Assembly (NCBI GenBank): GCA_944392255.1
Contig: CALXVY010000002.1
Location: 11,106 to 75,105 of the forward strand
DNA: 64,000 bases
Origin: an uncultured Alphaproteobacteria bacterium
Lineage (GTDB): Bacteria; Pseudomonadota; Alphaproteobacteria; RF32; CAG-239
Direction of reading: 5' to 3'
Below are positions 2,500 to 64,000 of this stretch, piece after piece. The translations under genes and the position numbers were made by a program. Position 1 is the stretch's first letter; the number at the start of each line of letters is the position of its first letter. The notes under the pieces were generated by a model that was given only the letters and a program-made list of their open reading frames with translations, was not told where the DNA came from and searched no databases.

Positions 2500-2859
2500 T
2501 TAAACATATTTAACTACCCCTCTCAAAGAGGGATTAAACATTCCGTTTAAAACGGAAACAACCATTTTCTCAACAAAAAGTACAGAATCCATAATTTGGG
2601 TTGTCGGATTTTCTTCTCGCCATGCCTCGATGGCTAATTTAACCATCAATACAAAAGCTTGTAAATGCGGTTCCGAAAAAAGGATTTTTTTAAGCTTTTG
2701 CTCATCGGCGTAGGGATGAGCTTGGCTCATTAAACTGCGCAATTCTCGAGATTTTGTTTTTTTCTCTTCTTCAGAAAGAGCGTTTAAAACTCTAAGCTGT
2801 TCAAAATTTTCAATTTGTTTGGTCAAATACGCAACGACATTTTTTTTAATTTCTTCCAT
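2500..2859 (-). CDS. hypothetical protein (119 aa)
   Basis: ORF with coding-like composition in same-strand tandem with the two genes above; no recognised motif. Confidence 0.4.
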   Translation of the reverse strand: MEEIKKNVVAYLTKQIENFEQLRVLNALSEEEKKTKSRELRSLMSQAHPYADEQKLKKILFSEPHLQAFVLMVKLAIEAWREENPTTQIMDSVLFVEKMVVSVLNGMFNPSLRGVVKYV

Positions 2860-2939
2860 AATTATATGTTTTAAAGTTAATAATTTTTATATAGCGCTTA
2901 ACGTAGCATATTTTTTTGTCTCAGGCAAGCACAAAAAAA

Positions 2940-2972
2940 AGGGGCAAGGAAAAATTCCCTTACCCCTTTTTC
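2940..2972 (-). terminator. intrinsic terminator after rplO
   Basis: hairpin GGGGCAAGG...CCTTACCCC preceded by an A-run on plus strand (a T-run on the minus transcript). Confidence 0.5.
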
Positions 2973-2991
2973 AAATTTTTTCTCAGCTGAA

Positions 2992-3447
2992 TTAAGCAAT
3001 AACGTTAACTTTACCGCCTGCTTTTTCAACAGCTGCAATAGCAGCCTTAGAAGCTGAATTTACGCTAATGGTAACATTGCTGGTGATAGCACCGCGAGCC
3101 AACAAACGAACACCGTCGAGCTCTTTGGAGATAACACCGGCTTCCATCAAAGCTTTAACATCAATAGAAGCAGCATTCAATTTACCGGCATCAACAGCTT
3201 TTTGGATAGTATCCAAATTAACAACTGCAAATGTTTTAGCAAAAGGATTTTTGAAACCGCGTTTCGGAAGTCTACGGTAGATAGGCATTTGACCGCCTTC
3301 AAAACCGTTAACAGCAACACCGGAACGAGATTTTTGACCTTTTTGACCGCGACCACCGGTCTTACCGGAACCACTACCGATACCGCGAGCAACACGCTTG
3401 CGAGATTTTCTGGCTCCTTCGTTGTCTCTAATTTCGTTTAATTTCAT
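2992..3447 (-). CDS. rplO: 50S ribosomal protein L15
   Basis: [43 protein letters not shown]... gly-rich L15 signature. Confidence 0.95.
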
Positions 3448-3517
3448 TTTTCTTCACCTTAAACTTTTCAAAATCTTCTGGGAAGCGAGGCTCATCACCT
3501 CGCCCCATAACAGATTT

Positions 3518-4275: not shown

Positions 4276-4647
4276 CTAAAATTTCAGACCAGCTTCACGA
4301 GCTGCGTCAGCTAAAGCTTTTACACGACCGTGATAGATGTAGCCGCCTCTATCGAAGACAACTTCACTAACACCATTCTTAACCGCTCTCTCAGCAACAG
4401 TCTTACCGATGAAGCTAGCAGCTTCGATGGTAGATGTTTTCTTGATGCTGTCGCGAATTTCTTTATCCAAAGTGGAAGCAGAAGCAACAGTAACACCTTT
4501 GGTGTCATCAATGATCTGAGCGTAGATGTGCTTACCGCTGCGAAATACAGACAATCTCATCTTTCCATTCGCAGCTTTTTTCAAAGCAGCACGAACGCGG
4601 TTTTTTCTTTTTTGATTTTTTTCAAACAATTTACTTGGCGTACTCAT
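4276..4647 (-). CDS. rplR: 50S ribosomal protein L18
   Basis: 123 aa; ...[18 protein letters not shown]... Confidence 0.95.
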
Positions 4648-7198: not shown

Positions 7199-7435
7199 CT
7201 AGGCGTTATTAACGATTACAGTCCAAGTTTTTGTCTTAGAATATGGTCTTGATTCCTCAATAGAAACCACATCACCGACTTTGAACTGATTGTTTTCATC
7301 GTGTGCAGCATACTTTTTGCTTTTACGAATGAATTTTTTGTAAACAGGGTGCATAACTTGGCGTTCAACTTTAACGACAACTGTTTTGTCCTGTTTATCG
7401 CTTACAACAACACCTTGAAGAATTCTTTTAGGCAT
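7199..7435 (-). CDS. rpsQ: 30S ribosomal protein S17
   Basis: 78 aa; [25 protein letters not shown]... Confidence 0.9.
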
Positions 7436-12753: not shown

Positions 12754-13134
12754 TCATTTCTTGAACCAATAACGCTCAAAAATGTCATAAAAGTCCGCAA
12801 CGGTTTTAATATTCTCGTAATCTTCATCTGAAACAGTTTTACCATATTTTTTTTCACAAGACATAATAAAATCTGTCATTAGCAAAGAATCCGCTCCTAA
12901 ATCATCTGTAAAAGAAGTTTCTTTTGGAATAACAGGTTTCTGGTAATCGAATTTCTTAACCACTAAGACCCCACCTGTTGGATAATAGCCTGATTCTACT
13001 CTAATTTTACAATACTTTTCAACACGTTCTCTGTCATAGCGACTGAAATAATCATAAATGAGTTCTTTAGCCTCTTTAATCATTTTAGGATTATAAGCTC
13101 TTTCCGGCTGCGACTTTTTCTCTAAATTTTCCAT
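12754..13134 (-). CDS. acyl-carrier-protein-like domain protein with N-terminal extension (about 127 aa from MENLEKK)
   Basis: C-terminal ...FTDDLGADSLLMTDFIMSCEKKYG... matches the ACP phosphopantetheine site (DLGADSL); about 60 aa of unknown N-terminal sequence; the longer ORF upstream is probably not translated. Confidence 0.5.
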   Translation of the reverse strand: MENLEKKSQPERAYNPKMIKEAKELIYDYFSRYDRERVEKYCKIRVESGYYPTGGVLVVKKFDYQKPVIPKETSFTDDLGADSLLMTDFIMSCEKKYGKTVSDEDYENIKTVADFYDIFERYWFKK

Positions 13135-13215
13135 AAAATAATATTTTTTAGAATTAATAATCAATTGAATTACCGCCAATTTAACCACAAATCATTCAAG
13201 AGTCAAACAAAAAAA

Positions 13216-13256: not shown

Positions 13257-13694
13257 TTACAATCCCAATTTTTGCAAAACCAGAATCTGAACATCTTCGA
13301 CGGTTTCAACTTCTTCAAATTCTTCGTCATCAATCTGGATACCAAATTCTTTCTCCAAATGAATCATCAATTCAACTTTTTCTAGACTTTCATAGCCCAA
13401 ATCATCTTGCAAATTTTCTTCAAGTTTTAAATTCCAAGCATCTATCCCTACAAGATCACCGATATGTTTGTTTATTTTATCGACAACATCTTGGTGTAAC
13501 AAAGTCTTTTGAGGAGTTTTTTCCGCTTCAAGGCTTGAATTTGTTTTAAACAAAATTTCTGCCTCATCACATAAATTATCAGAAAATTGAGTTTTCAAAC
13601 TTTCAGGAAAATTAACTTCCAACTCTTGCTCCAACGCAGAAAACATATCTGCAACTTTTTGTTGGATTTTACGTTCTAATTGAGACTTTTTCAT
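13257..13694 (-). CDS. acyl-carrier-protein-like protein with N-terminal extension (about 145 aa from MKKSQLERK)
   Basis: C-terminal 75 aa align along their length to ACP (...IGDLVGIDAWNLKLEENLQDDLGYESLEKVELMIHLEKEFGIQIDDEE...); Ser retained at the attachment position. Confidence 0.55.
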   Translation of the reverse strand: MKKSQLERKIQQKVADMFSALEQELEVNFPESLKTQFSDNLCDEAEILFKTNSSLEAEKTPQKTLLHQDVVDKINKHIGDLVGIDAWNLKLEENLQDDLGYESLEKVELMIHLEKEFGIQIDDEEFEEVETVEDVQILVLQKLGL

Positions 13695-13770
13695 AAAATA
13701 ATGTTTTAAATTAATAATCATTTGAATTATTGGTACTTTAAGCTGGCGCTGATAAAGAGTCAACAACAAA

Positions 13771-13802
13771 AAGCATCTCACTTAGCCAAAAGTGAAATGC
13801 TT
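13771..13802. terminator. repeated terminator-like hairpin, copy 3 (one substitution in loop)
   Basis: AAGCATCTCACTTAGCCAAAAGTGAAATGCTT preceded by AAGAGTCAACAACAAAA. Confidence 0.5.
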
Positions 13803-14553: not shown

Positions 14554-15333
14554 TCAGATTTTCAAAATCTCGGGCATTTGTTTGCGCTTAAACGCCATTT
14601 TATGATATTGCTTAATCACCCAAGCAACGATTTTGGCATCATGTCCCAGCGCCACAATCTCATCTTCTGTTTTCTGTTCATCGAGATACTGATGCAAAAT
14701 AGCATCCAAAACAGAATACGGCGGCAAAGAATCCTCATCTTTCTGCCCGTCACTGAGTTCAGCTGAAGGTGCGCGATTAATCACTTCTTCGGGGATAACA
14801 TAACCTTGCTGATTGCGCCAGCGCGCCAAATCAAAAATCAAAGTTTTATATAAATCACCAATCGGCAACAATCCGCCGCAGACATCACCATAAAGCGTGC
14901 AATATCCCATCGCCGCTTCCGACTTATTACCGCAAGCCAAAACCAAAGCGCCGTTCTGGTTGGAATAGGCCATCAAAATTTTACCGCGCTCTCGCGCTTG
15001 CAAGTTTTCCATAACCAAATTTTTCGGCTCTTGACCAAAGGCTTGAGTGAGAAATTGCTTTTGCGCAACAATAACCGGTTCAATATCCAAAATCTGATAA
15101 GCAAAGCCGTTCAAATCGGCAAGTTTTTGCGCAATCTGCAAGCTTAAATCCGAAGTATGTTTAGTTTTCATCATCAGACAAGATACATTTTCTTTGCCCA
15201 AAGCATCACAAGCCAGCACTGAAACCAAAGCAGAATCCATACCACCCGACAACCCCAAAATCACTTTTTTAAAACCATAACGCTGACAATAGTCTTGCAA
15301 ACCCTTTTTCAATTTGTTCCAAATCTTTTCCAT
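14554..15333 (-). CDS. nadE: NH3-dependent NAD+ synthetase
   Basis: 259 aa; PP-loop ...VILGLSGGMDSALV...; no glutaminase domain. Confidence 0.85.
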   Translation of the reverse strand: MEKIWNKLKKGLQDYCQRYGFKKVILGLSGGMDSALVSVLACDALGKENVSCLMMKTKHTSDLSLQIAQKLADLNGFAYQILDIEPVIVAQKQFLTQAFGQEPKNLVMENLQARERGKILMAYSNQNGALVLACGNKSEAAMGYCTLYGDVCGGLLPIGDLYKTLIFDLARWRNQQGYVIPEEVINRAPSAELSDGQKDEDSLPPYSVLDAILHQYLDEQKTEDEIVALGHDAKIVAWVIKQYHKMAFKRKQMPEILKI

Positions 15334-15337
15334 AGTC

Positions 15338-16816
15338 TTATCTCCCGAATTGATTTTGATAATGTTGAATCAAAGCTTGTTGTTTTTGATAAAGCGGCGC
15401 GTTCATACCCACACCGTAACGATGCGGATTGTGCAGACGTTTATATTCTTCCGGCAAAGCTTGCAAATTACGCATTGTGGCTTGCTGAATTTCGCTAAGC
15501 GGACGATTTTTGTGCTTTTCATCTACCTTACCGTTTTGTACCACATCTTGCAACAACAATTGCGCCTGCGTTCCAGCTTCAAAGTGCCTCGGCGCTAGGG
15601 TTTTATCTTGCAAATGATAAGATAGCAAAGGTTTAACTAAAACCCCATTTTGCAAATAATCCTCATCTTGAGAAACAACCACGTCACCATTATATTTCCC
15701 GTCTTGAAGCAAGCGGATGATATTAGTCTTTCCCGGGATGGAGGTTTTATCTCCCGCTACTTTGATTTTATCTGTACCTTCATAATTTTTGGTTTTATAA
15801 ACACAACCCAGCGCCGGCATATCATCGGCACGCACTAACTTGGTACCAAGCGCAAAACTGTCAATCGGTGCTTTTTGTACTTTGATTAAGTCTTCGATAA
15901 TGTATTCATCCAAATCATTTGAAATAATGATTTTGGTTTGCTTCATTCCGGCATCATCCAAAAGTTTGCGTGCTTGCTTACTCCAATAAGCCAAATCACC
16001 GGAATCAAGACGAATACCCTTGAGCGGAATTTTGGTTTCTTTGCTTGCTTTAATCGCGTTCAAAATACCTTGTCTGGTTTCATAAGTATCGGGAAGCAAA
16101 ATGCCGTCATAAGGATAGGTTTGCAAATAGGCTTTGAAAGCATCAACCTCATTTTCAAAAGACATAATCCAAGAATGCGCCATTGTCCCGACCGGCGGAA
16201 TATGATAAGTCTGTGCAGCTGCCACATTAGATGTTGCCACACATCCACCGACAAATGCCGCACGTGTTGGTGAAAAACCGCCCTGCTCCATCGCCCGACG
16301 TAAACCAAACTCCATCACCGGTCTTTTGATGCCGTCAGATTGCGCTGCATAAACCGCGCGTGCTGCTTTGGTAGCTACTGTATTTTGCGAGTTGAGAATA
16401 TTTAACAACGCCGCTTCCACCAATTCCACCTGCCAGTTTGGTCCACTGATACTATAAAGCGGCTCTCCAGCAAAAACGAGTTCTCCTTCCGGCACGGCTT
16501 TCACATCAACTTGCAATTTTTGACTCCTAAGTGCGGTTAAAAAATCTTTAGAAAAAAGCGGTTCGCCATTGCTGTTTTTTTGTGCTGCTAAATAGGAGAT
16601 ATCTTTATCGGTCACTTGCCAATTTTCCACCCACTCGAGAAATTCACCCAATCCGGCAGAAACGATATAACCGCAATCTTTGGGCATTTTTCTAAAAAAA
16701 GCCTCTGAGGTTTTATGCTCATTTTGCTTGCCGGCAGCAAACCATCCGCCGCTCATGGTCAAATGATAAAAATCGCACCACAACAAACTGCCTTCATTAA
16801 TCAAATTTTGTCTCAT
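15338..16816 (-). CDS. pncB: nicotinate phosphoribosyltransferase (long-form, eukaryote-type)
   Basis: 492 aa; blocks LLWCDFYHLTMSGGW, VKAVPEGELVFAGEPL, MEFGLRRA, GTMAHSWIMSF, IRLDSGDLAYW, LGCVYK align to the long-form NAPRT family, not to NAMPT. Confidence 0.8.
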   Translation of the reverse strand: MRQNLINEGSLLWCDFYHLTMSGGWFAAGKQNEHKTSEAFFRKMPKDCGYIVSAGLGEFLEWVENWQVTDKDISYLAAQKNSNGEPLFSKDFLTALRSQKLQVDVKAVPEGELVFAGEPLYSISGPNWQVELVEAALLNILNSQNTVATKAARAVYAAQSDGIKRPVMEFGLRRAMEQGGFSPTRAAFVGGCVATSNVAAAQTYHIPPVGTMAHSWIMSFENEVDAFKAYLQTYPYDGILLPDTYETRQGILNAIKASKETKIPLKGIRLDSGDLAYWSKQARKLLDDAGMKQTKIIISNDLDEYIIEDLIKVQKAPIDSFALGTKLVRADDMPALGCVYKTKNYEGTDKIKVAGDKTSIPGKTNIIRLLQDGKYNGDVVVSQDEDYLQNGVLVKPLLSYHLQDKTLAPRHFEAGTQAQLLLQDVVQNGKVDEKHKNRPLSEIQQATMRNLQALPEEYKRLHNPHRYGVGMNAPLYQKQQALIQHYQNQFGR

Positions 16817-16817
16817 C

Positions 16818-17441
16818 TTAAATCTCCTTTACCCCTTTAACCAAATTGAACTGACATTTTTTCTCATTCAATGCCATGCGAAAAAACTGCTTTGAAGTCA
16901 TCATCTTGAGATACCCCTTTTCAACTGCTTTTTGATAAGCCGGCTGTTGGATGATTTCGGGCATTTGTTGGTTTGCTCCCATGCACAAATCTTCCAGAAC
17001 CGTGACCTTAGCACCACGGCTCAAAAATCCGTTCATTGCTTGCTTCACACAAATATCGGAAAGCACGCCGCAAAGATAAACTTCTTTGCCTTTCCAATCT
17101 TGTTGCAATAAGGCATAAGTCTTTTCTTCGTTCCACAAATTGGTGGTCGATTTATAGAGATTTATAACAGGGATATTGTCCTTAAATTCGGCAGCCTTTT
17201 GCCAACCCCAAGTGCCGTAAATGGTATGAGGCGGAAAAGATTGTGCTTCTTTGGTTTCGGGATAAGTTTCAGCAAAATGTGTGTCCGCTGCATCAATAAT
17301 TTGCGAGAACATTCCTTTTTGCAAAGACTGGTTAAATTGTTGATGTCTTGCAATCAACTCGGGATTATTAATGGTGAGGTTACCGTTTTCGGCAACAAAA
17401 TCGTTCTGAAAATCTATGCGAACTAAAGTGCGTTCGTTCAT
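16818..17441 (-). CDS. pncA: nicotinamidase / isochorismatase-family cysteine hydrolase
   Basis: 207 aa; N-term LVRIDFQNDF and catalytic-Cys region LCGVLSDICV typical of PncA-like hydrolases; sits between the NMNAT and NAPRT genes. Confidence 0.65.
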   Translation of the reverse strand: MNERTLVRIDFQNDFVAENGNLTINNPELIARHQQFNQSLQKGMFSQIIDAADTHFAETYPETKEAQSFPPHTIYGTWGWQKAAEFKDNIPVINLYKSTTNLWNEEKTYALLQQDWKGKEVYLCGVLSDICVKQAMNGFLSRGAKVTVLEDLCMGANQQMPEIIQQPAYQKAVEKGYLKMMTSKQFFRMALNEKKCQFNLVKGVKEI

Positions 17442-17475
17442 TGTTTATACTCCTTAGGCTTATCAGGTTAATCAA

Positions 17476-17514
17476 GCGACCTCTCTCCCATAAGCCCTGC
17501 GGAAGACCAAGGTC
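17476..17514 (-). promoter_or_regulatory. GC-rich conserved motif, copy 1 (CCATAAGCCCTGCGGAAGACC core) in the nadM-pncA spacer
   Basis: second copy at 18198-18228 shares the core YCCATAAGCCCTKCGGAMGACC; stands out in an AT-rich region. Confidence 0.3.
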
Positions 17515-17527
17515 GATAAATAAAAAT

Positions 17528-18070
17528 TTAGATAATTGCTTTTCTTTTGTAAAAATGATCTTCAATCAACTGGTAATTTTCCGGATGAATAAAGTTTTTC
17601 CAGCGTTTATCGCCAAACTTAATCATATCGCGCACCATGGTACCGGTAACAAAGGGAAAATCCTCAGACGTGCGGTCAACATATTCAATATTTTGAAAAG
17701 CCTCTTTGAACCAATGCGCATCATAAGAACTACCGGCATAATAAACATCGGGACGTCCAAGTTGCGGCAAACTTTCGTTCATAAAGTCTAAAACATATTC
17801 TGCCCATTCAGCCGGATTGTTAATATCAAACAAACCAATGATTTTTAAGCGCGGATAATCAGGAGAATTACGATAGACATTTTGAATCATCTTTTTGCGC
17901 GTGGTGTAGTTGAGAGGGTTGCGCTCTGTTCCTTGTTCTTGAATAGAACCCAAGATGATGGTTACTTGTGCACATTCTTTAAGCATACGGTCAATCAAAC
18001 GGGCATGCCCAATGTGGAAAGGCTGCGCGCGCATAATACTTAAACCATGTTGATATTTATATTCAGACAT
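17528..18070 (-). CDS. nadM: nicotinamide/nicotinate mononucleotide adenylyltransferase, archaeal/NadM type
   Basis: 180 aa; nucleotidyltransferase motif IMRAQPFHIGHARLI (HxGH) and overall resemblance to archaeal NMNAT. Confidence 0.7.
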   Translation of the reverse strand: MSEYKYQHGLSIMRAQPFHIGHARLIDRMLKECAQVTIILGSIQEQGTERNPLNYTTRKKMIQNVYRNSPDYPRLKIIGLFDINNPAEWAEYVLDFMNESLPQLGRPDVYYAGSSYDAHWFKEAFQNIEYVDRTSEDFPFVTGTMVRDMIKFGDKRWKNFIHPENYQLIEDHFYKRKAII

Positions 18071-18197
18071 AAAAAAAACTCCTTATTTAAGGAGCCGACA
18101 TCAGAAAGATTTATATTTCATTTTAGAAACTGATAAATTTAGATAGCTTGTGCAAATAAATTTATCCATCTTTGAACTCGGCTCTGTTCTAACTCTG

Positions 18198-18228: not shown

Positions 18229-18359
18229 AACAATTTTTATAATAAAGATAAAAAATAAAATTGCAACAAAAAAGTCTTTTCAAAATACGCACTCGAAACT
18301 CTCCGCAAGGCACTTATAGAAACTCGATAATTGAGATGAGTAGAAGCAAAAATAGAAAA

Positions 18360-18401
18360 GCCGAAAATCCTAGTGTACATAAGCGTACATGAATTTTCGG
18401 C
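18360..18401. repeat. nested palindromic repeat, copy A
   Basis: GCCGAAAATCC-TAGTGTACATAAGCGTACATGA-ATTTTCGGC: conserved core TAGTGTACA..GTACATGAATT inside complementary outer arms. Confidence 0.6.
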
Positions 18402-18497
18402 TCTTTCTAATTTTTGCGATTAATCGCTAGAACAAAAGCGCCACAAGGCACTTTTCTAAAAGTTCAAGATTTGGAGATTATAACGCAAAAAACAAAG

Positions 18498-18540
18498 CGG
18501 TCGAAATTCTAGTGTACAAGAAGTACATGAATTTCGACCG
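18498..18540. repeat. nested palindromic repeat, copy B
   Basis: CGGTCGAAATTCTAGTGTACAAGAAGTACATGAATTTCGACCG, perfect outer 11-bp stem. Confidence 0.6.
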
Positions 18541-18585
18541 TTCTGTAGTTTTTTGCGCTAGAAGCCCAAATACTGAGCTTTTAGA

Positions 18586-19776
18586 CTATTTCAAGATTTT
18601 AGAAACCACACCAGCACCTACAGTGTGACCACCTTCACGAATAGCAAAACGAAGACCTTCGTTCATTGCAATCGGGTGAATCAATTTTGCTGTCATGCGA
18701 ATGTTATCGCCAGGCATTACCATTTCTGTACCTTCAGGCAATTCAATTGCACCGGTTACATCGGTGGTACGGAAATAGAATTGAGGACGATAGTTTGAGA
18801 AGAACGGAGTATGACGACCGCCTTCTTCTTTGGTCAAAATGTAGCATTCGCATGTGAAGTCTGTGTGCGGAGTAATGGTGCCAGGAGCTGCCAATACTTG
18901 TCCACGTTCAACTTCTTCTCTCTTGGTACCGCGGAGCAATACACCGATGTTATCGCCGGCTTCACCTTCATCCAACAATTTACGGAACATTTCAATACCG
19001 GTACATGTGGTTTTTTGTGTCGGTTTAATACCTACGATTTCGATATCATCACCTACGTGCAATACACCTCTTTCTACACGACCGGTTACAACTGTACCAC
19101 GACCAGAGATTGAGAATACGTCTTCAATCGGCATCAAGAACGGTTGATCTTTCGGACGTTCCGGTTGCGGAATGTAGCTGTCTACAGCTTTCATCAATTC
19201 TACGATTGAATCGTGACCAATTTTCGGATCGCCGTTTTCCAATACTGCCAATGCAGAACCTTTGATGATTGGGATTTCATCGCCTGGGAAGTCATATGAG
19301 CTCAACAAATCTCTGATTTCCATTTCAACCAAATCCAACAATTCTGGATCGTCTACTTGGTCTACTTTGTTCATGTATACTACCAATGCCGGCACACCTA
19401 CTTGACGAGCGAGCAAGATGTGTTCACGTGTTTGCGGCATCGGACCATCTGCTGCTGATACAACCAAGATTGCACCATCCATTTGAGCTGCACCGGTAAT
19501 CATGTTTTTAACATAGTCAGCGTGGCCCGGGCAGTCTACGTGTGCATAGTGACGATTCGGGGTTTCATATTCTACGTGTGAGGTGGAAATGGTAATACCG
19601 CGTGCTTTTTCTTCAGGAGCTTTATCAATTTGATCATATGCTGTGAAGCTTGCACCACCCTCTTCTGCCAATACTTTGGTAATTGCAGCTGTCAAGGTTG
19701 TTTTACCGTGGTCTACGTGACCAATCGTTCCAATGTTGCAGTGAGGCTTATTGCGCTCAAATTTCTCTTTTGCCAT
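18586..19776 (-). CDS. tuf: elongation factor Tu (complete copy)
   Basis: 396 aa; [15 protein letters not shown]..., DCPGHADY..., NKVD...; stop CTA at 18586-18588. Confidence 0.97.
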
Positions 19777-19877
19777 TTAGATTTCTCCAAATAAAAAAAT
19801 TAAAATAAAAAAAATAAAATTAATCAAAATTTTGTTTTTGGCGCGGAAGATAGAGTGATTATCAAAGTGAGAAAAAT

Positions 19878-19903
19878 TTAGTGTACAATTTCTCAAAACT
19901 AAC
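19878..19903. repeat. nested palindromic repeat, degenerate half-copy C
   Basis: GAGAAAAATTTAGTGTACAATTTCTC in the fusA-tuf spacer; part of an about 85-bp tandemly duplicated unit (19841-19925 vs 19927-20012). Confidence 0.45.
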
Positions 19904-19963
19904 TCCATATTTCCAACAAACCAAAATTTGTTTTTAGAGGAGCAGGTAGAGTGATTTTGGAAG

Positions 19964-20007
19964 CGAAAAAAATTTTAGTGTACATCGAAGTACATGAATT
20001 TTTTGAG
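19964..20007. repeat. nested palindromic repeat, copy D
   Basis: CGAAAAAAATTTTAGTGTACATCGAAGTACATGAATTTTTTGAG. Confidence 0.5.
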
Positions 20008-20051
20008 ACTGAACAAAACCACTCTAGTTGCCCTATAAAAACGAATTTTTA

Positions 20052-22127
20052 TTATGCGTTTTTGGCCTTTACTTTATCAGCAATATCCTTCGGCACTTCA
20101 GCATAGTGATCAAACACCATGGTGAATTGTGCACGACCTTGAGACAAAGAACGCAATGTGTTAACGTAACCGAACATGTTAGCCAATGGAACTTGAGCAT
20201 CGATAACGCGAGCATTAGCACGTTGATCCATACCATTAACCATACCGCGGCGAGAGTTCAAGTCACCGATGATATCACCCATATATTCTTCCGGAGTAAC
20301 AACTTCAACTTTCATTACCGGTTCAAGAAGTTTCGGGTTAGCTTGACGCATACCTTCACGGAAGGCAGCACGAGCAGCAATTTCAAAACACATAACGTTA
20401 GAGTCAACTTCGTGATATGCACCATCATACAAGGTACATTTTACGCCGCTAACCGGATATCCGGCAATAACACCGGCATCCATAGCCGAACGCAAACCTT
20501 TTTCAACACCCGGGATGTATTCTTTTGGTACGTTACCGCCAACAACAGTATTTTCAAATTCAAAACCATTGTAACCTTCAATCGGTTCAAATTTGATTTT
20601 AACTTTAGCGAACTGACCAGCACCACCAGATTGTTTTTTGTGGGTGTATTCGATATCGCAAGGTTTGGTAAATGTTTCACGATAAGCAACTTGCGGCTCA
20701 CCGACATTGCATTCAACTTTGAATTCACGTTTCAAACGATCAACGATAATTTCGAGGTGCAATTCACCCATACCTTTGATGATGGTTTGACCAGAATCCG
20801 GATCAGAAGAAACTTTGAAAGACGGGTCTTCCATAGCCAAACGAGACAAAGCCAAGCCCATTTTTTCAACGTCAGCCTTAGTCTTCGGCTCAACAGCCAA
20901 TTCGATAACCGGATCAGGGAATTCCATGTTTTCCAAAACAATAGGTTTGCTTTGGTCGCACAAGGTATCACCTGTTGTGGTATCTTTCAACCCAGCCAAA
21001 GCGATAATATCGCCGGCATGAGCTTCTTTCAAATCTTCACGTTTGTTGGCATGCATCAACAACATACGACCAACGCGTTCTTTTTTATCTTTAACAGAGT
21101 TATAGATATAAGAACCGGCAGTCATTGTACCAGAATAAATACGGGTAAATGTCAAAGAACCAACGAACGGGTCGTTCATGATTTTGAATGCCAAAGCTGC
21201 AAGAGGTTGATCATCAGCAGGATGTCTTTCTTCTTCAATATCTGTACCAGGTTTAACACCTTTAATTGACGGAATATCGAGAGGAGAAGGCAAGTAGTCG
21301 ATAACAGCATCCAATAAAGGTTGAACACCTTTGTTTTTGAATGCAGTACCGCAAAGAACCGGAACGAAATCTTGAGCCAATGTACCTTTACGGATGCATT
21401 TTTTCAAAGTTTCAACGGAAATTTCTTTACCTTCGAGATAATCTTCCATTGCTTGTTCATCTTGTTCAACAGCAGTTTCAATCAAAGCGTGGTGATATTC
21501 TTCAGCTTTATCTTTCAAGTCAGCCGGAATATCTCTTTCTTCAATCGGAGAATCTGCAGTATCACCTGTGTAAACAATAGCTTTCATACGCAACAAATCG
21601 ACAACGCCTATGAAATCAGCTTCAGCACCGATTGGCAATTGTAAAGCCAACGGGCGAGCACCCAAGCGGTCGACAATCATATCCAAGCAACGATAGAAGT
21701 TGGCACCGATACGGTCCATTTTGTTGCAGAAACAAATACGAGGTACACCATATTTATCAGCTTGACGCCATACGGTTTCGGATTGAGGTTCAACACCGGC
21801 AACGGAGTCGAACACGGTGATAGCACCGTCCAAAACGCGCAAAGAACGTTCAACTTCAACGGTGAAGTCCACGTGGCCCGGAGTATCAATAATGTTTACT
21901 CTATGACCTTTCCAGAAGCAAGTAGTAGCAGCGGAGGTAATAGTAATACCACGCTCTTGTTCTTGTTCCATCCAGTCCATGGTAGCGGCACCTTCGTGGG
22001 TTTCACCGATTTTATGGTTCACACCTGTATAATATAGGATACGCTCAGTAGTCGTTGTTTTACCGGCATCAATGTGAGCCATGATACCGATGTTTCTGTA
22101 CATTTCAAGTTTATGTGTACGAGCCAT
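20052..22127 (-). CDS. fusA: elongation factor G
   Basis: 691 aa; [31 protein letters not shown]... Confidence 0.97.
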
Positions 22128-62914: not shown

Positions 62915-62944
62915 TTGACAATTCTTAAATTTACTTTTTATAAT
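62915..62944 (+). promoter_or_regulatory. near-consensus sigma-70 promoter (TTGACA - 17/18 nt - TATAAT)
   Basis: TTGACA at 62915-62920, TATAAT at 62939-62944. Confidence 0.5.
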
Positions 62945-62950
62945 TTATCT

Positions 62951-63113
62951 GCCGATTAGAGGTAGTCGGCGGTGCCTAAACAACACCCTCATGTAAATAA
63001 AATCCTCCGTTCAATTTGAGCGGAGTGCCGGTAATATATGGAATAACGGCGACTGACATGACAGTTGTTTAGCTCCGCTCGCCTTAGTTTGAAACTTTGG
63101 CGAGCTTTGTTTT
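62951..63113 (+). ncRNA. candidate small RNA or terminator-containing leader upstream of the XRE gene
   Basis: about 160 nt downstream of the consensus promoter with stems (CCGATTAGAGGTAGTCGG; GAGCGGAG...CTCCGCTC) ending in hairpin GCTCGCCTTAGTTTGAAACTTTGGCGAGC + TTTGTTTT (63077-63113). Confidence 0.3.
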
Positions 63114-63138
63114 AACTATAAAAAACAGGAGCTAAAAA

Positions 63139-63384
63139 ATGAATACCAGTGAAATCAGCAAAGGAATATCATCTCAAGTTTTTGAAGTGCGCAAAGAAAT
63201 CGGCGCAAAATTATTACAATTTCGTCTGGAAGACGGTTTGAGCCAATCCGAGGCTGCCGTTCTTTGCGGCATTTCCAAACACCGCATCCAGCTCTTTGAA
63301 AACGGCTATTCTCTTTCTTATCGGCACTTAGCCCTCCTCGCCCGCCTGTATGGTTTTCGCTATGAGATTATCTTGCGAAGATAA
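63139..63384 (+). CDS. small XRE/Cro-like HTH protein (81 aa)
   Basis: ...FRLEDGLSQSEAAVLCGISKHRIQLFENG... HTH; GGAG RBS 8 nt upstream. Confidence 0.55.
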   Translation: MNTSEISKGISSQVFEVRKEIGAKLLQFRLEDGLSQSEAAVLCGISKHRIQLFENGYSLSYRHLALLARLYGFRYEIILRR

Positions 63385-63629
63385 AAAACAAGATTGAAGA
63401 ACAAACTTGTTATTAAACCGTTGCGGTCAAGCTGGCTCAGCTTGGCCGGCGGCAGCCAATATTTCAAACGTCATTCTGAATTTATTTCAGCATCCCATAG
63501 ATGCTGCTCACCTCTCCACAGAGCACTCATAAAAACTCGATAATTGAGCGATTAATCGCTAGAACAAAAGCGCCACAAGGCACTTTTCTAAAAGCTCAAG
63601 ATTTGAGGATTATAGTGTGAAAAACAAAG

Positions 63630-63672
63630 CGGCCGAAATTCTAGTGTACAAGAAGTACATGAATTTCGACCG
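63630..63672. repeat. nested palindromic repeat, copy E
   Basis: CGGCCGAAATTCTAGTGTACAAGAAGTACATGAATTTCGACCG; lies within the about 150-bp block (63540-63700) nearly identical to 18415-18560. Confidence 0.6.
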
Positions 63673-63771
63673 TTCTGTAGTTTTTTGCGCTCGACATCAC
63701 CTCTTCATACTCAACACAAGGCACTTTTTTAGAACGCAGAGAATAGTTTAGATAGAGTGAAAATAAGAAAG

Positions 63772-63813
63772 GGAAAAATTCTAGTGTAGTTAAGCCTACA
63801 TGAATTTTTCCCT
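63772..63813. repeat. nested palindromic repeat, copy F (compensatory inner-stem change GTAC to GTAG/CTAC)
   Basis: GGGAAAAATTCTAGTGTAGTTAAGCCTACATGAATTTTTCCC. Confidence 0.55.
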
Positions 63814-63859: not shown

Positions 63860-64000
63860 TTATTTCAAGATTTTAGAAACTACACCAGCACCTACAGTGT
63901 GACCACCTTCACGAATAGCAAAACGAAGACCTTCGTTCATTGCAATCGGGTGAATCAATTTTGCTGTCATGCGAATGTTATCGCCAGGCATTACCATTTC
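63860..64000 (-). CDS. tuf: elongation factor Tu, second copy (only C-terminal 46 codons in window)
   Basis: nucleotide-identical to the 3' end of the tuf at 18586-18730 (...[14 protein letters not shown] stop); classic tufB-tRNATrp-secE-nusG arrangement. Confidence 0.9.

Follow-up and report, generated by a model that had tools for sequence, protein, structure and literature searches.

The tuf and fusA genes and their palindromic units

The window, which is the whole 64,000-nt stretch of DNA analysed, contains a fusA-tuf1 pair and, at its right edge, the 3′ end of a second EF-Tu gene (tuf2), each gene being capped by copies of one long palindromic element. It holds five full units, one half unit and two deletion stumps. 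Full-unit boundaries are those of covariance-model matches (76–117 bits), and a covariance-model search of the whole window with filters off returned no further copies.

18132..18167, minus strand: stump upstream of a nadD-like gene, GGATAAATTTAT|TTGCACAAGCTATCTAAATTTATC
18306..18315, plus strand: linker motif CAAGGCACTT, with identical copies at 18444–18453, 63576–63585 and 63717–63726
18314..18454, minus strand: unit A, full; core 18371–18395; covariance model 90.7 bits
18455..18591, minus strand: unit B, full; core 18510–18533; covariance model 83.2 bits
18586..19776, minus strand: tuf1 (EF-Tu, 396 aa), from the ORF listing; capped by units B and A
19841..19887, minus strand: half unit C; nhmmer match to profile positions 18–66 only, E 1.4e-4
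19920..20059, minus strand: unit D, full; core 19976–20000; covariance model 107.1 bits
20052..22127, minus strand: fusA (EF-G, 691 aa), from the ORF listing; capped by unit D
63533..63565, strand given as ".": A-type unit stump, aaactcgataattgag|cgattaatcgctagaac, junction 63548/63549
63586..63723, minus strand: unit E, full; core 63642–63665; covariance model 75.7 bits
63726..63864, minus strand: unit F, full; core 63782–63806; covariance model 117.4 bits
63860..64000, minus strand: 3′ end of tuf2, cut off by the window edge; units F and E cap it

Unit B overlaps the tuf1 stop codon (18586–18588), with unit A as the second member of a head-to-tail tandem. Behind tuf2, whose 45-aa C-terminal ORF matches the tuf1 C-terminus encoded at 18586–18720, unit F overlaps the stop codon (63860–63862), and unit E, a paralogue of unit B, is second in the tandem. 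Unit D, located in the fusA-tuf1 spacer, overlaps the fusA stop codon (20052–20054), and units occupy the same position behind fusA at three further loci (L034, L056 and L077). Half unit C, 65–110 nt upstream of the tuf1 start codon, retains the arm that is 3′ in gene sense and lacks the partner arm; it aligns well to unit D over this half alone. Each copy of the linker CAAGGCACTT ends at the start of unit A, B, E or F (4 matches vs. 0.12 expected), and the motif is also present in close relatives (L014, L033, L037 and L151).

All core copies in the window are carried on the plus strand. The strict pattern TAGTGTAC-N3–8-GTACATGA matches four times against 0.00 expected, and neither half-motif occurs outside units in the window. 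The original prediction described six core copies with a constant 5-nt spacer; five of these lie in full units, the copy at 19878 belongs to the half unit, whose right arm is absent, and the window loops measure 5–6 nt. The 85-bp tandem duplication that it placed in the fusA-tuf spacer holds for ~45 nt (34/42 aligned bases identical) and is weak over the other ~40 nt (21/33 aligned bases in a heavily gapped alignment).

Architecture and covariation of the unit

Each unit is a 125–140-nt imperfect palindrome composed of several helices with conserved internal loops between them, rather than the ~40-nt hairpin formerly taken as the whole element. The window units, unit E apart, fold as one long hairpin, their energies ranging from −36 to −64 kcal/mol and their z-scores from −5 to −12; unit A, for instance, folds at −45.8 kcal/mol (z −5.8) and the gene-sense RNA of unit B at −57.1 kcal/mol (z −9.7). 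Unit E reaches a z of only about −3 because its outer part is lost: the outer helices are gone, the inner hairpin alone folds, and GGCCG/CGACC contains one C·A mismatch. Only the apex and a few modules are common to the five window copies.

The stems covary across 84 units from many species, and the structure comprises 30 pairs in five helices. Paired cells account for 90.7% of the total vs. 68.9% in shuffles, with none of 500 shuffles reaching the observed value, and sliding the partner columns reduces paired cells to 31–54%. Double-change cells number 564 in these units vs. 187 in shuffles. The predicted outer arms that differ between copies and stay complementary are present in the window sequences, as is the predicted compensatory inner change: the unit F core carries the closing pair GTGTAG/CTACAT, a G/C swap that recurs in about 14 units. 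Compensatory change had been read as selection on the hairpin. Both sides indeed change in 21/30 pairs, but this is no proof of structural selection by itself, since templated correction in quasi-palindromes also keeps arms complementary.

In contrast to the covarying stems, approximately 25 bases at the apex are invariant. The conserved apical hairpin, ~36 nt with a fixed 2-nt bulge, reads AAAUUC-A-UGUAC-loop-GUACA-CUA-RAAUUU in gene sense. The TGTAC-GTACA spacing varies between 5 and 7 nt across the family, which rules out a duplex operator for a dimeric DNA-binding protein. The outermost helix (helix 1) is the most variable part of the unit and is flanked symmetrically by a 5′ A-run and a 3′ T-run (mean 3.3 and 3.2 of 6 bases).

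Read in gene sense, units A, B and F present a GC-rich stem base followed by the U-rich tracts UUUUCUAUUUUU, CUUUGUUUUUU and UUUCUUAUUUU, respectively; the inner stem is GCCGAAAAU/AUUUUCGGC in unit A and the GC-rich CGGTCG/CGACCG in unit B. A terminator hairpin with a U-tract is thus found in A, B and F, and weakly in unit D and the class-1 units; over the whole family, U makes up 3.3 of the 6 flanking bases.

The strand opposite the capped gene folds better in 93/100 units (core ± 45 nt), by a mean of 8.4 kcal/mol. Unit D folds at −40.9 kcal/mol in gene sense vs. −50.2 kcal/mol on the opposite strand, and unit F at −42.3 vs. −63.7 kcal/mol; in units A and E, the gene-sense strand folds better. 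At the apex, an invariant G·U pair of the opposite strand becomes an A·C mismatch in the mRNA. Outside this pair, G·U exceeds A·C by 168 to 77. We do not take this wobble-pair strand test as decisive, since the excess comes from three semi-conserved positions and the freely varying inner stems give 21 vs. 21.

Units abut stop codons in one orientation

An opposite-strand ORF of ≥80 aa ends ≤20 nt from one unit end in 46/87 units, compared with 3 mirror cases; for ORFs of ≥150 aa, 38 abut and none mirror (87 full-length units). In 49/50 abutting cases, the distance between stop codon and unit edge falls between −14 and +8 nt, and most are within 8 nt. The abutting genes encode five EF-Tu, 4–5 EF-G, 2–4 PPDK, 3 FtsH and 2 AckA proteins, together with DnaK, FabI, BamA, NusB and Era, and the predicted association with highly expressed genes is borne out by these kinds of gene. 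In a diverged Ca. Enterousia subfamily, the gene end lies by the same unit end in most of 7 copies when the tolerance is relaxed to 40 nt; some mirror hits occur as well. From tuf1 as far as the promoter-proximal region of the following gene, no other terminator-like site was found.

By GC skew, the TAGTGTAC strand is the C-rich strand in 108/109 units. The C-rich strand carries about 30% of ORFs; none of ≥150 aa is capped there, and capping is confined to the 3 smaller mirror-case ORFs. Polarity is equally tied to the GC-skew strand, so replication could set the orientation instead of transcription. At eight loci, the unit lies in the opposite sense, within the leader of a pilin gene, and six of the seven pilin loci tested obey the C-rich-strand rule despite the reversed gene orientation. 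Polarity, stop-codon position and the 125–140-nt size together point to a 3′-end or terminator-type element.

No promoter or other conserved sequence occurs at a fixed distance on either flank of 98 aligned units, so the sole guaranteed transcript is the mRNA of the upstream gene. The sequences TCGACC-16-TATAAT in unit B and TGTACA-18-GATAAT (minus strand) in half unit C are promoter-like. An outward promoter in the gene-sense 3′ half was rejected, its consensus matches not being general across units.

A lineage-specific family

The core was found in at least 95 blocks from at least 72 species-level gut alphaproteobacterial assemblies, including Ca. Enterousia. The units are an undescribed, lineage-specific family in uncultured gut Alphaproteobacteria. 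These hosts, among them the order Rs-D84 with Ca. Enterousia, have not been cultured, and their genomes are often reduced to less than about 1 Mb (PMC12306168). The family extends beyond the tuf duplication, contrary to the refuting case set out in the original prediction, with units also behind fusA, ppdK, ftsH, ackA, dnaK and others. The element is described in none of the literature retrieved by topic or by sequence words. Rfam 15 contains no family for the units; in the window, tRNA-Trp alone passes its gathering threshold, and E-value scans of three regions gave microRNA-precursor hairpin echoes of 12–28 bits against thresholds of 43–428.

The half-motifs are confined to the units: of 96 TAGTGTAC words in 683 kb, 93 lie inside and 3 outside, and for GTACATGA the counts are 98 and 6. 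This confinement rules out an uptake sequence. Restriction-site avoidance does not account for it, as GTAC occurs about as often as a Markov model predicts (observed/expected 1.01). A phage origin was likewise rejected, all 32 pattern matches in viral contigs being chance matches without the hairpin or AAAWYY context. Further resemblances to other systems, namely GCTCTAGA as boxA with the purine loop as boxB, CAAGGCAC as a sigma-54 −24 box and AAGTGC as the Haemophilus uptake sequence, proved partial and in the wrong context.

Arrays, internal deletions and insertions

Arrays of units run head to tail with a 123–139-nt period, and the family includes half units, stumps and strain differences. 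The A-type stump (63533–63565) lacks the 81 hairpin nt found at 18336–18416 in unit A, and direct sequence comparison shows its flanks to be identical to those of unit A. At the site of the nadD-like-gene stump (18132–18167), three related assemblies (L151, L153 and L155) carry a full unit exactly in place (91 bits, nhmmer), and the internal deletion is common to the window and two others (L157 and L154). The two events have different boundaries, with ≤1–3 nt of microhomology, and are therefore internal deletions rather than excisions. Consequently, neither filled-vs-empty comparison provides the precise excision or empty site that would prove transposition, and neither revealed a target-site duplication.

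A ~115-nt non-coding insert, X, occupies the same apical position in three different units, and at another locus (L075) a chimeric unit joins an A-type left half to a B-type right half. Among the loci examined, no gene is flanked by unit halves, X being the only insert between halves. No transposase or RAYT gene was seen beside any unit in the surrounding 8-kb blocks, where a few of the recurring ORF clusters were run against Pfam; clusters recurring across loci comprise housekeeping genes, pilin-like proteins, ABC ATPases and uncharacterised families.

Comparison with known elements

The units resemble REP, BIME and REPIN elements in being many-copy extragenic imperfect palindromes, often a few bases from stop codons, and share with them their transcription as 3′ UTRs, their clustering and the targeting of the apex by insertions. 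REPs and BIMEs differ in being 20–40 nt, conserved over their full length within a genome, species-specific, RAYT-associated and often 5′ GTAG; they occur in both orientations, with alternation in BIMEs, whereas the units are near-absolute in orientation and form head-to-tail arrays. The units measure 125–140 nt, their apex alone is invariant across at least 72 species, and their stems covary; GTAG at the foot is not conserved in the window copies. MITEs possess conserved terminal inverted repeats and a target-site duplication, both of which the units lack. The earlier assignment to a REP/MITE-like element thus stands for REP/ERIC-like behaviour and fails for a generic REP or MITE, since the termini are the least conserved part, target duplication is absent and copies in one genome differ.

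ERIC/IRU elements are long imperfect palindromes of ~127 bp that lie in transcribed intergenic regions and include variants with internal deletions or insertions. The units match them in length and in palindromic form, but ERIC/IRU show no sequence similarity to the units, belong to another host clade, occur in both orientations and are conserved along their whole length. Rickettsia palindromic elements and Neisseria Correia elements are ~100–150 bp, sometimes lie in frame in genes and sometimes serve as terminators or promoters. The units resemble both in size and palindromic form, in their reduced or host-associated genomes and in the in-frame gene insertion (the pilin leader). They differ in that the Rickettsia and Correia elements have conserved terminal inverted repeats, a TA target duplication in the Correia case, and no strict polarity or stop-codon rule.

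Intrinsic terminators, like the units, place a hairpin directly after the stop codon with a 3′ U-tract and a 5′ A-tract. They share no sequence with one another, whereas the units have ~30 pairs in five helices and an invariant 25-nt apex and are homologous across dozens of unrelated genes. Terminator stems are typically 7–9 bp, and 14–15 bp is already extraordinary (PMC10325885). The uptake-sequence terminators of Neisseria and Pasteurellaceae likewise carry a conserved short sequence in lineage-specific terminator hairpins (PMC1852404), and their hosts, like those of the units, encode type IV pilins. Uptake sequences differ in being short words spread genome-wide at about one per kb, also in genes; the TAGTGTAC words keep to the units (93/96), and the two arms cannot be derived from one word by simple inversion.

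Integron attC sites are imperfect palindromes straight after an ORF, with a fixed orientation and a structure conserved above sequence, as in the units. Their base is conserved and their apex variable, the reverse of the units. We rejected an attC identity: in some units the left module is RYYYAAC-like (GCCTAAC, GTCTAAC), but its partner, ATTCTCC or ATTATCC, lacks GTT.

Discussion

The reading that we favour, with a probability of roughly 0.5, is that the units form a REP/ERIC-like family of long-stem, bidirectional-type terminators or 3′-end stabilisers of highly expressed leading-strand genes. Beyond the anatomy, covariation, polarity, position, kinds of capped gene and taxonomic spread that the units display, we infer an activity in termination or stabilisation and a factor that recognises the apex. 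A unit starts at, or a few bases from, the stop codon of a G-rich-strand (leading-strand) gene, its orientation always the same, and is thus transcribed as the 3′ end of the mRNA of that gene. Beginning at the apex, the nascent RNA would fold progressively outwards into a very long stem with a U-tract behind it; stem and tract together may stop RNA polymerase, and the 3′ hairpin left behind may resist exonucleases. Downstream and convergent genes would be insulated from the heavy transcription of tuf, fusA, ppdK, ftsH, ackA, dnaK and similar genes. With its flanking A and T runs, a unit could halt convergent transcription too, and two or three tandem units behind tuf may give a tighter stop. 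The family has multiplied, builds head-to-tail arrays and decays by internal deletion, as REP and ERIC elements do. REPs in the 3′ UTRs of E. coli serve at once as terminators and as stabilisers (bioRxiv 10.64898/2026.03.23.713779), and unusually long terminator stems give robust termination (PMC10325885).

Several observations weigh against a terminator. The more stable fold lies on the strand opposite the capped gene; this weighs less than it seems, since G·U and A·C are equal in the variable stems and, for units A and E, the gene-sense fold is the more stable one. Nothing in termination calls for an invariant 25-nt apex. The genes of the fusA-tuf pair, between which unit D lies, are usually co-transcribed; a GC-rich stem base is missing from D and the other class-1 units, which would accordingly be weak terminators. 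The eight pilin-leader loci, with the unit in the opposite sense, also count against this role.

The invariance of the apex implies that something reads its sequence: the fixed two-base bulge, the fixed G·U/A·C site and the 5–7-nt loop are unchanged across at least 72 species and among paralogous units with freely drifting stems. We tentatively suggest that the apex may be the docking site of a dedicated, clade-specific factor, and that the units may constitute a factor-dependent, strand-polar end-marking system of the most heavily transcribed leading-strand genes. This factor could be specialised for termination, RNA processing or replication-transcription conflicts, or it could be an HUH enzyme that binds hairpins and has been domesticated.

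A selfish or domesticated hairpin repeat of the REP, REPIN or IS200/IS605-end kind, copied via single-stranded DNA at the fork by an HUH Y1 transposase or RAYT, is an unlikely origin. On this account, the apex and bulge would be the recognition hairpin, the polarity would reflect the replication strand, and gene ends would simply tolerate insertions. The C-rich motif strand in 108/109 units, retained in six of the seven pilin loci tested, agrees with it, as do the REP-sized apical hairpin with its 2-nt bulge, the head-to-tail arrays with half units, stumps and strain differences, the ~115-nt insert at one apical position in three units and the unit in frame within a gene. Single-strand transposons are known to be replication-oriented (PMC5027513, PMC6006769), and REPINs are mobile hairpins (PMC3116915). 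Such a repeat would, however, leave the exact stop-codon overlap without explanation. No transposase gene was seen adjoining units in the 8-kb blocks around them, the termini are the least conserved part with target duplication absent, and both deletion events are internal. Copies within a genome differ strongly, whereas orthologues persist in different species, accompanied by compensatory changes, and the hairpin of the lagging-strand template (gene-sense) is the weaker of the two.

The original prediction also raised a small RNA, for which each unit would be the gene: a ~125-nt structured RNA read from the TAGTGTAC strand, converging on the neighbouring gene and stopping at a shared U-tract. 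The better fold of that strand in 93/100 units, the recovery by RNAalifold of the whole 32-pair hairpin there and of the apex alone on the other strand, the G·U excess and the purine-rich loops all agree with such a gene. We nonetheless judge it improbable: no promoter or other conserved sequence is found at a fixed upstream distance, which leaves the earlier proposal without support, and arrayed units abut, leaving promoters no space. The G·U excess reduces to the three semi-conserved positions noted above, half units and stumps persist, Rfam offers no counterpart, and a small RNA gives no cause for the fixed stop-codon position.

A role at the DNA level, in which a recombinase, a gyrase-like enzyme or a nucleoid protein would bind a cruciform or single-stranded hairpin, is in our view quite improbable. 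It draws on the strict polarity relative to GC skew and on the stabler hairpin lying on the C-rich strand, the leading-strand template, which parallels attC orientation in sedentary integrons (PMC5371416). The 5–7-nt loop variation that excludes an ordinary duplex operator does not exclude a hairpin-binding protein, and the apex is a hot spot of insertion and exchange (insert X and the A-left/B-right chimera). Yet attC core sites are absent (no GTTRRRY), as are intI and a cassette array, the capped genes are housekeeping genes, no candidate protein emerged, and the stop-codon position and A/T runs are better explained by RNA.

The pilin loci evoke a portable translation-start module, with a Shine-Dalgarno sequence in the apical loop, a start ATG in GTACATGAATT and a leader peptide MNF..RK.ALD.PLY from the 3′ half. 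At eight loci, a type IVb prepilin gene has the unit as its 5′ end (MNFLRQRKTALDAPLYAVSAG, then RSMIEML); the SAGRS codons differ synonymously between species, the loop GGAG lies 3–4 nt ahead of the ATG, and variant cores change ATG to GTG, retaining a start codon. As a general function, this is very improbable, since elsewhere the ORF from the core ATG spans 3–80 codons in shifting frames, has no conserved stop and often runs antisense into the neighbouring gene; lengths and frames this inconsistent exclude a conserved small ORF other than the pilin leader. The eight pilin cases are orthologous and thus represent a single event.

A merely duplicated tuf 3′ UTR without constraint of its own, suggested by the paralogy of B and E inside the duplicated region downstream of tuf, is refuted by the many unrelated genes followed by units in at least 72 assemblies, by the strong covariation and by units A, D and F not being mutual copies.

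To our knowledge, nothing is known of transcription control in these gut Alphaproteobacteria. A single conserved module of ~130 nt caps their most highly expressed genes with near-absolute polarity. The family offers a ready marker and a covariance model for gene-end annotation in these assemblies, and the unit is a candidate strong, portable terminator. It also provides a test case for REP-like placement, in which RNA function, replication-strand stability of palindromes and a mobilising enzyme can be set against one another. The invariant apex is a handle for finding a trans-acting partner; if such a factor does read it, the units would be more than passive terminators or junk repeats.

Hairpin units in the window

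Units A–F are palindromic long-hairpin repeats, with B and A behind tuf1, D behind fusA, F and E behind tuf2, and C a half unit. The strict pattern TAGTGTAC-N3-8-GTACATGA matches four times in the window, compared with 0.00 expected, and a fifth core copy carries a G/C swap (GTGTAG...CTACAT), bearing out the compensatory inner change of the original prediction; all core copies lie on the plus strand. A covariance model built from an alignment of 84 related units and searched, unfiltered, against the entire window recovered exactly five full units and, beyond these and their weaker reverse-strand echoes (the units being palindromic), no score above noise.

Full units (covariance model scores) and adjoining genes
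18314-18454, unit A, 91 bits
18455-18591, unit B, 83 bits
18586-19776, minus strand, tuf1
19920-20059, unit D, 107 bits
20052-22127, minus strand, fusA
63586-63723, unit E, 76 bits
63726-63864, unit F, 117 bits
from 63860, minus strand, tuf2

Five of the six predicted copies are thus full units, the sixth, at 19878, being a half unit (19841-19887) without the right arm; the predicted 85-bp tandem duplication extends over no more than ~45 nt. Window units fold into a single long hairpin each (z-scores -5 to -12), except unit E, which has lost its outer helices. The 10-mer CAAGGCACTT, shared with close relatives, occurs four times on the plus strand (18306-18315, 18444-18453, 63576-63585 and 63717-63726; 0.12 expected), each copy ending precisely at the start of unit A, B, E or F. 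Read in gene sense, the direction of the upstream gene, it appears as AAGTGCCTTG after the unit, and the copy between B and A forms its own small hairpin followed by a U-run.

Family size and hosts

Scanning species-representative genomes with the looser core pattern TAGTGTA-N5-10-TACATGAATT yielded at least 118 blocks, including 23 chance matches without hairpin in unrelated taxa; true family blocks number at least 95, from at least 72 assemblies. Hosts are labeled uncultured Alphaproteobacteria, 'Azospirillum sp.', Rhodospirillales and Ca. Enterousia, from the gut of human, ruminant, deer, rabbit and mouse, and unit-adjoining EF-G proteins share 92-94% identity among four hosts. Ca. Enterousia, a member of the reduced-genome order Rs-D84 (PMC12306168), carries a diverged subfamily with unchanged architecture. 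The few blocks with other taxon labels are probably mis-binned contigs. Alphaproteobacterial contigs with units occur in bins labeled Eubacteriales, Bacteroidaceae and [Ruminococcus] gnavus (L006, L008, L032, L109 and L110), probably mis-binned contigs of public assemblies. The same core pattern gave only chance matches in viral contigs, Rfam holds no family resembling the unit, and literature text searches returned no description of it. The family is real and far broader than is visible in the window sequence alone.

Units cap highly expressed genes

With TAGTGTAC on top, the right-hand gene lies on the opposite strand. In 49/50 abutting cases its stop codon sits between -14 and +8 nt relative to the edge of the unit, in most of them no more than 8 nt away. 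Such an ORF abuts 46/87 full units and the mirror arrangement occurs at 3/87; for ORFs of at least 150 aa, the counts are 38 and 0. Most of the remaining units occupy the second or third place in a head-to-tail array. Heavy-duty housekeeping genes predominate among those capped (EF-Tu, EF-G, PPDK, FtsH, AckA, DnaK, FabI, BamA, NusB and Era), in agreement with the association with highly expressed genes proposed as a test.

An A-run on one side and a T-run on the other frame the outer helix symmetrically, as in bidirectional terminators, and units A, B and F in gene sense combine a GC-rich stem base with a U-rich tract directly after it. We favor, at a probability of about 0.5, a clade-specific family of REP/ERIC-like long-hairpin units, held in one orientation at the stop codons of leading-strand genes with high expression and acting as long-stem bidirectional-type terminators and 3'-end stabilizers. 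Precedents are E. coli REPs (bioRxiv 10.64898/2026.03.23.713779) and long-stem terminators (PMC10325885).

An independent small RNA is less likely; neither unit flank holds conserved sequence and there is therefore no sign of a dedicated promoter. Two promoter-like consensus matches, both pointing downstream, sit in gene-sense 3' halves of units:

18477-18504, minus strand, unit B, TCGACC-16-TATAAT, before the NAD genes
19858-19887, minus strand, half unit C, TGTACA-18-GATAAT, ~80 nt before the tuf1 start codon

Judged by these consensus matches, a second role as promoters is conceivable for units or their remnants.

Strand polarity and folding

In 108/109 units, TAGTGTAC lies on the C-rich strand, and capped genes lie on the G-rich strand in 41/41 cases (mean skew +0.15). 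In the window, the skew sign stays constant even through plus-strand gene blocks, and skew therefore mainly reflects replication. The C-rich strand holds ~30% of ORFs in the loci, yet none of at least 150 aa is capped, the only cases being three smaller mirror ORFs. Consequently, the polarity is matched equally well by the replication strand and by the direction of a leading-strand gene with high expression.

The more stable strand is opposite to the capped gene in 93/100 units, strongly so for F and D, and RNAalifold recovered the whole hairpin solely on that strand. The invariant apical pair, together with three semi-conserved positions, accounts for the excess of G.U over A.C; the wobble argument is weak, because freely covarying inner stems have 21 of each and gene sense is the better-folding strand of units A and E. 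In one possible reading that would unite these observations, the leading-strand template would retain the better-folding strand, leaving long palindromes less exposed as single strands, the arrangement kept by attC sites of sedentary integrons (PMC5371416). Should an RNA function also need gene-sense orientation, both demands would be satisfied only behind leading-strand genes. In the main rival reading, which would tie polarity to the replication strand, a hairpin repeat is handled in single-stranded form at the replication fork (PMC5027513, PMC6006769, PMC3116915); this reading has a low probability but ranks above an independent small RNA, a DNA-level binding site and a translation-start module.

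The sole case in which gene sense and replication strand separate is a set of type IVb pilin genes (domains Bundlin, PilS_N and N_methyl), a single evolutionary event because they are orthologous. Here the unit lies in frame within the prepilin leader (MNFLRQRKTALDAPLYAVSAG|RSMIEML), opposite to the usual gene rule, and the skew rule is kept at 6/7 loci tested. The SAGRS codons differ synonymously among species, and a unit-free paralogue is present 400 nt away.

Pilin-like genes with a whole in-frame unit: L024, L038, L053, L064 (e.g., 2623-3453, minus strand), L087, L093, L098, L110

A translation-start module is less likely as a general reading. In the pilin leader, the start codon may be the unit's own ATG, and the loop carries GGAG in several loci. 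Pilin-like paralogues occur in 13 of ~90 unit-bearing blocks. A second repeat, ggattgcttcgcgttgctcgcaatgac, reading LLRVARND in the pilin frame, lies upstream of pilin-like genes (L064, ~3400-3430 and ~4370-4400; also L087, L093 and L098).

Gain, loss and inserts

Among assemblies with an identical NadD-like protein, units behind tuf differ, with order B-A in the window and L157 and B-F-class 1 (a D-like type) in L151, L153 and L155; a unit upstream of nadD is present or absent. A further difference among these assemblies, within L151-L160, is a gene of 214-225 aa with a weak Lcl_C-like match that is inserted on the upstream side of nadD. Two stumps remain in the window:

18132-18167, deletion remnant of a unit
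63533-63565, stump without the 81 nt found at 18336-18416

Their deletion boundaries differ, indicating internal palindrome deletions and ruling out excision. Arrays of three or four units have a period of 123-128 nt (L002, L099). Three different units have a conserved insert of ~115 nt in place of their apical GTAC-loop:

L014, 5570-5684
L066, 2137-2249
L075, ~7257-7375 in reverse-complement coordinates, minus strand, between an A-type left half and a B-type right half

Its junctions are invariably TAGT|...|(G/C)TACATGA; it starts with AACYGCTAAGKAAAAAT, followed by a hairpin and ATTTTTMTCTGCAARGTCTT, and has no Rfam counterpart. Such repeat-like dynamics are comparable to those of REP, BIME and ERIC families.

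Other window features

12754-13188 and 13257-13781, minus strand, two neighboring ORFs (144 and 174 aa) located between the NAD genes and the S10 operon, each with a C-terminal phosphopantetheine-attachment (acyl-carrier) domain
14554-18070, minus strand, NAD salvage cluster (nadE, pncB, isochorismatase/pncA-like and nadD-like genes) between tuf1 and the S10 operon
62915-62944, plus strand, perfect sigma-70 consensus promoter (TTGACA-18-TATAAT, 12/12)
62945-63138, leader of ~195 nt with hairpin potential between this promoter and the HTH_XRE gene, no Rfam match
63139-63384, plus strand, HTH_XRE gene (81 aa), convergent with tuf2, units E and F in between

Across the whole window, the palindromic 4-mers GATC, GGCC and CTAG are strongly avoided (observed/expected 0.28, 0.43 and 0.55) and GTAC is neutral (1.01), a composition suggestive of restriction-modification acting against GATC and GGCC.

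Hairpin architecture and the frozen apex

Consensus on the TAGTGTAC strand
5' part: AAAAnnnCG-GAGAATGG-nnn-AGATAGAG-nnATTT-...
Apical part: ...-GnGAnAAAAATTY-TA-GTGTAC-AnAGAA-GTACAT-GAATTTTT-...
3' part: ...-AAAATnGCTCTAGATG-nnCC-GTTATA-CGnnTTTT

The five helices comprise 30 pairs, which are 90.7% paired versus 68.9% when shuffled and 31-54% with partner columns slid; 21 pairs show changes on both sides, and the hairpin is therefore maintained. Compensatory change had been read as selection on the hairpin; its maintenance holds, but selection need not be the sole cause, since templated correction inside quasi-palindromes may play a part alongside it.

About 25 bases at the apex do not vary between units, partly because the search pattern demanded them. 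A relaxed profile search found the variant cores CTAGCGTAG..CTACGTGGG, GGAGCGTAC..GTACGTGAGC and GCAGTGTAC..GTACATGAGG, all retaining the G.U position, with the U-A pair replaced by C-G in the first two. A DNA-level binding site is less likely than the terminator and stabilizer reading. Across at least 72 species, ~25 apical bases with a fixed bulge are frozen as the other parts of the hairpin drift, a contrast that no model accounts for, and this frozen apex is the part of the finding most worth pursuing.
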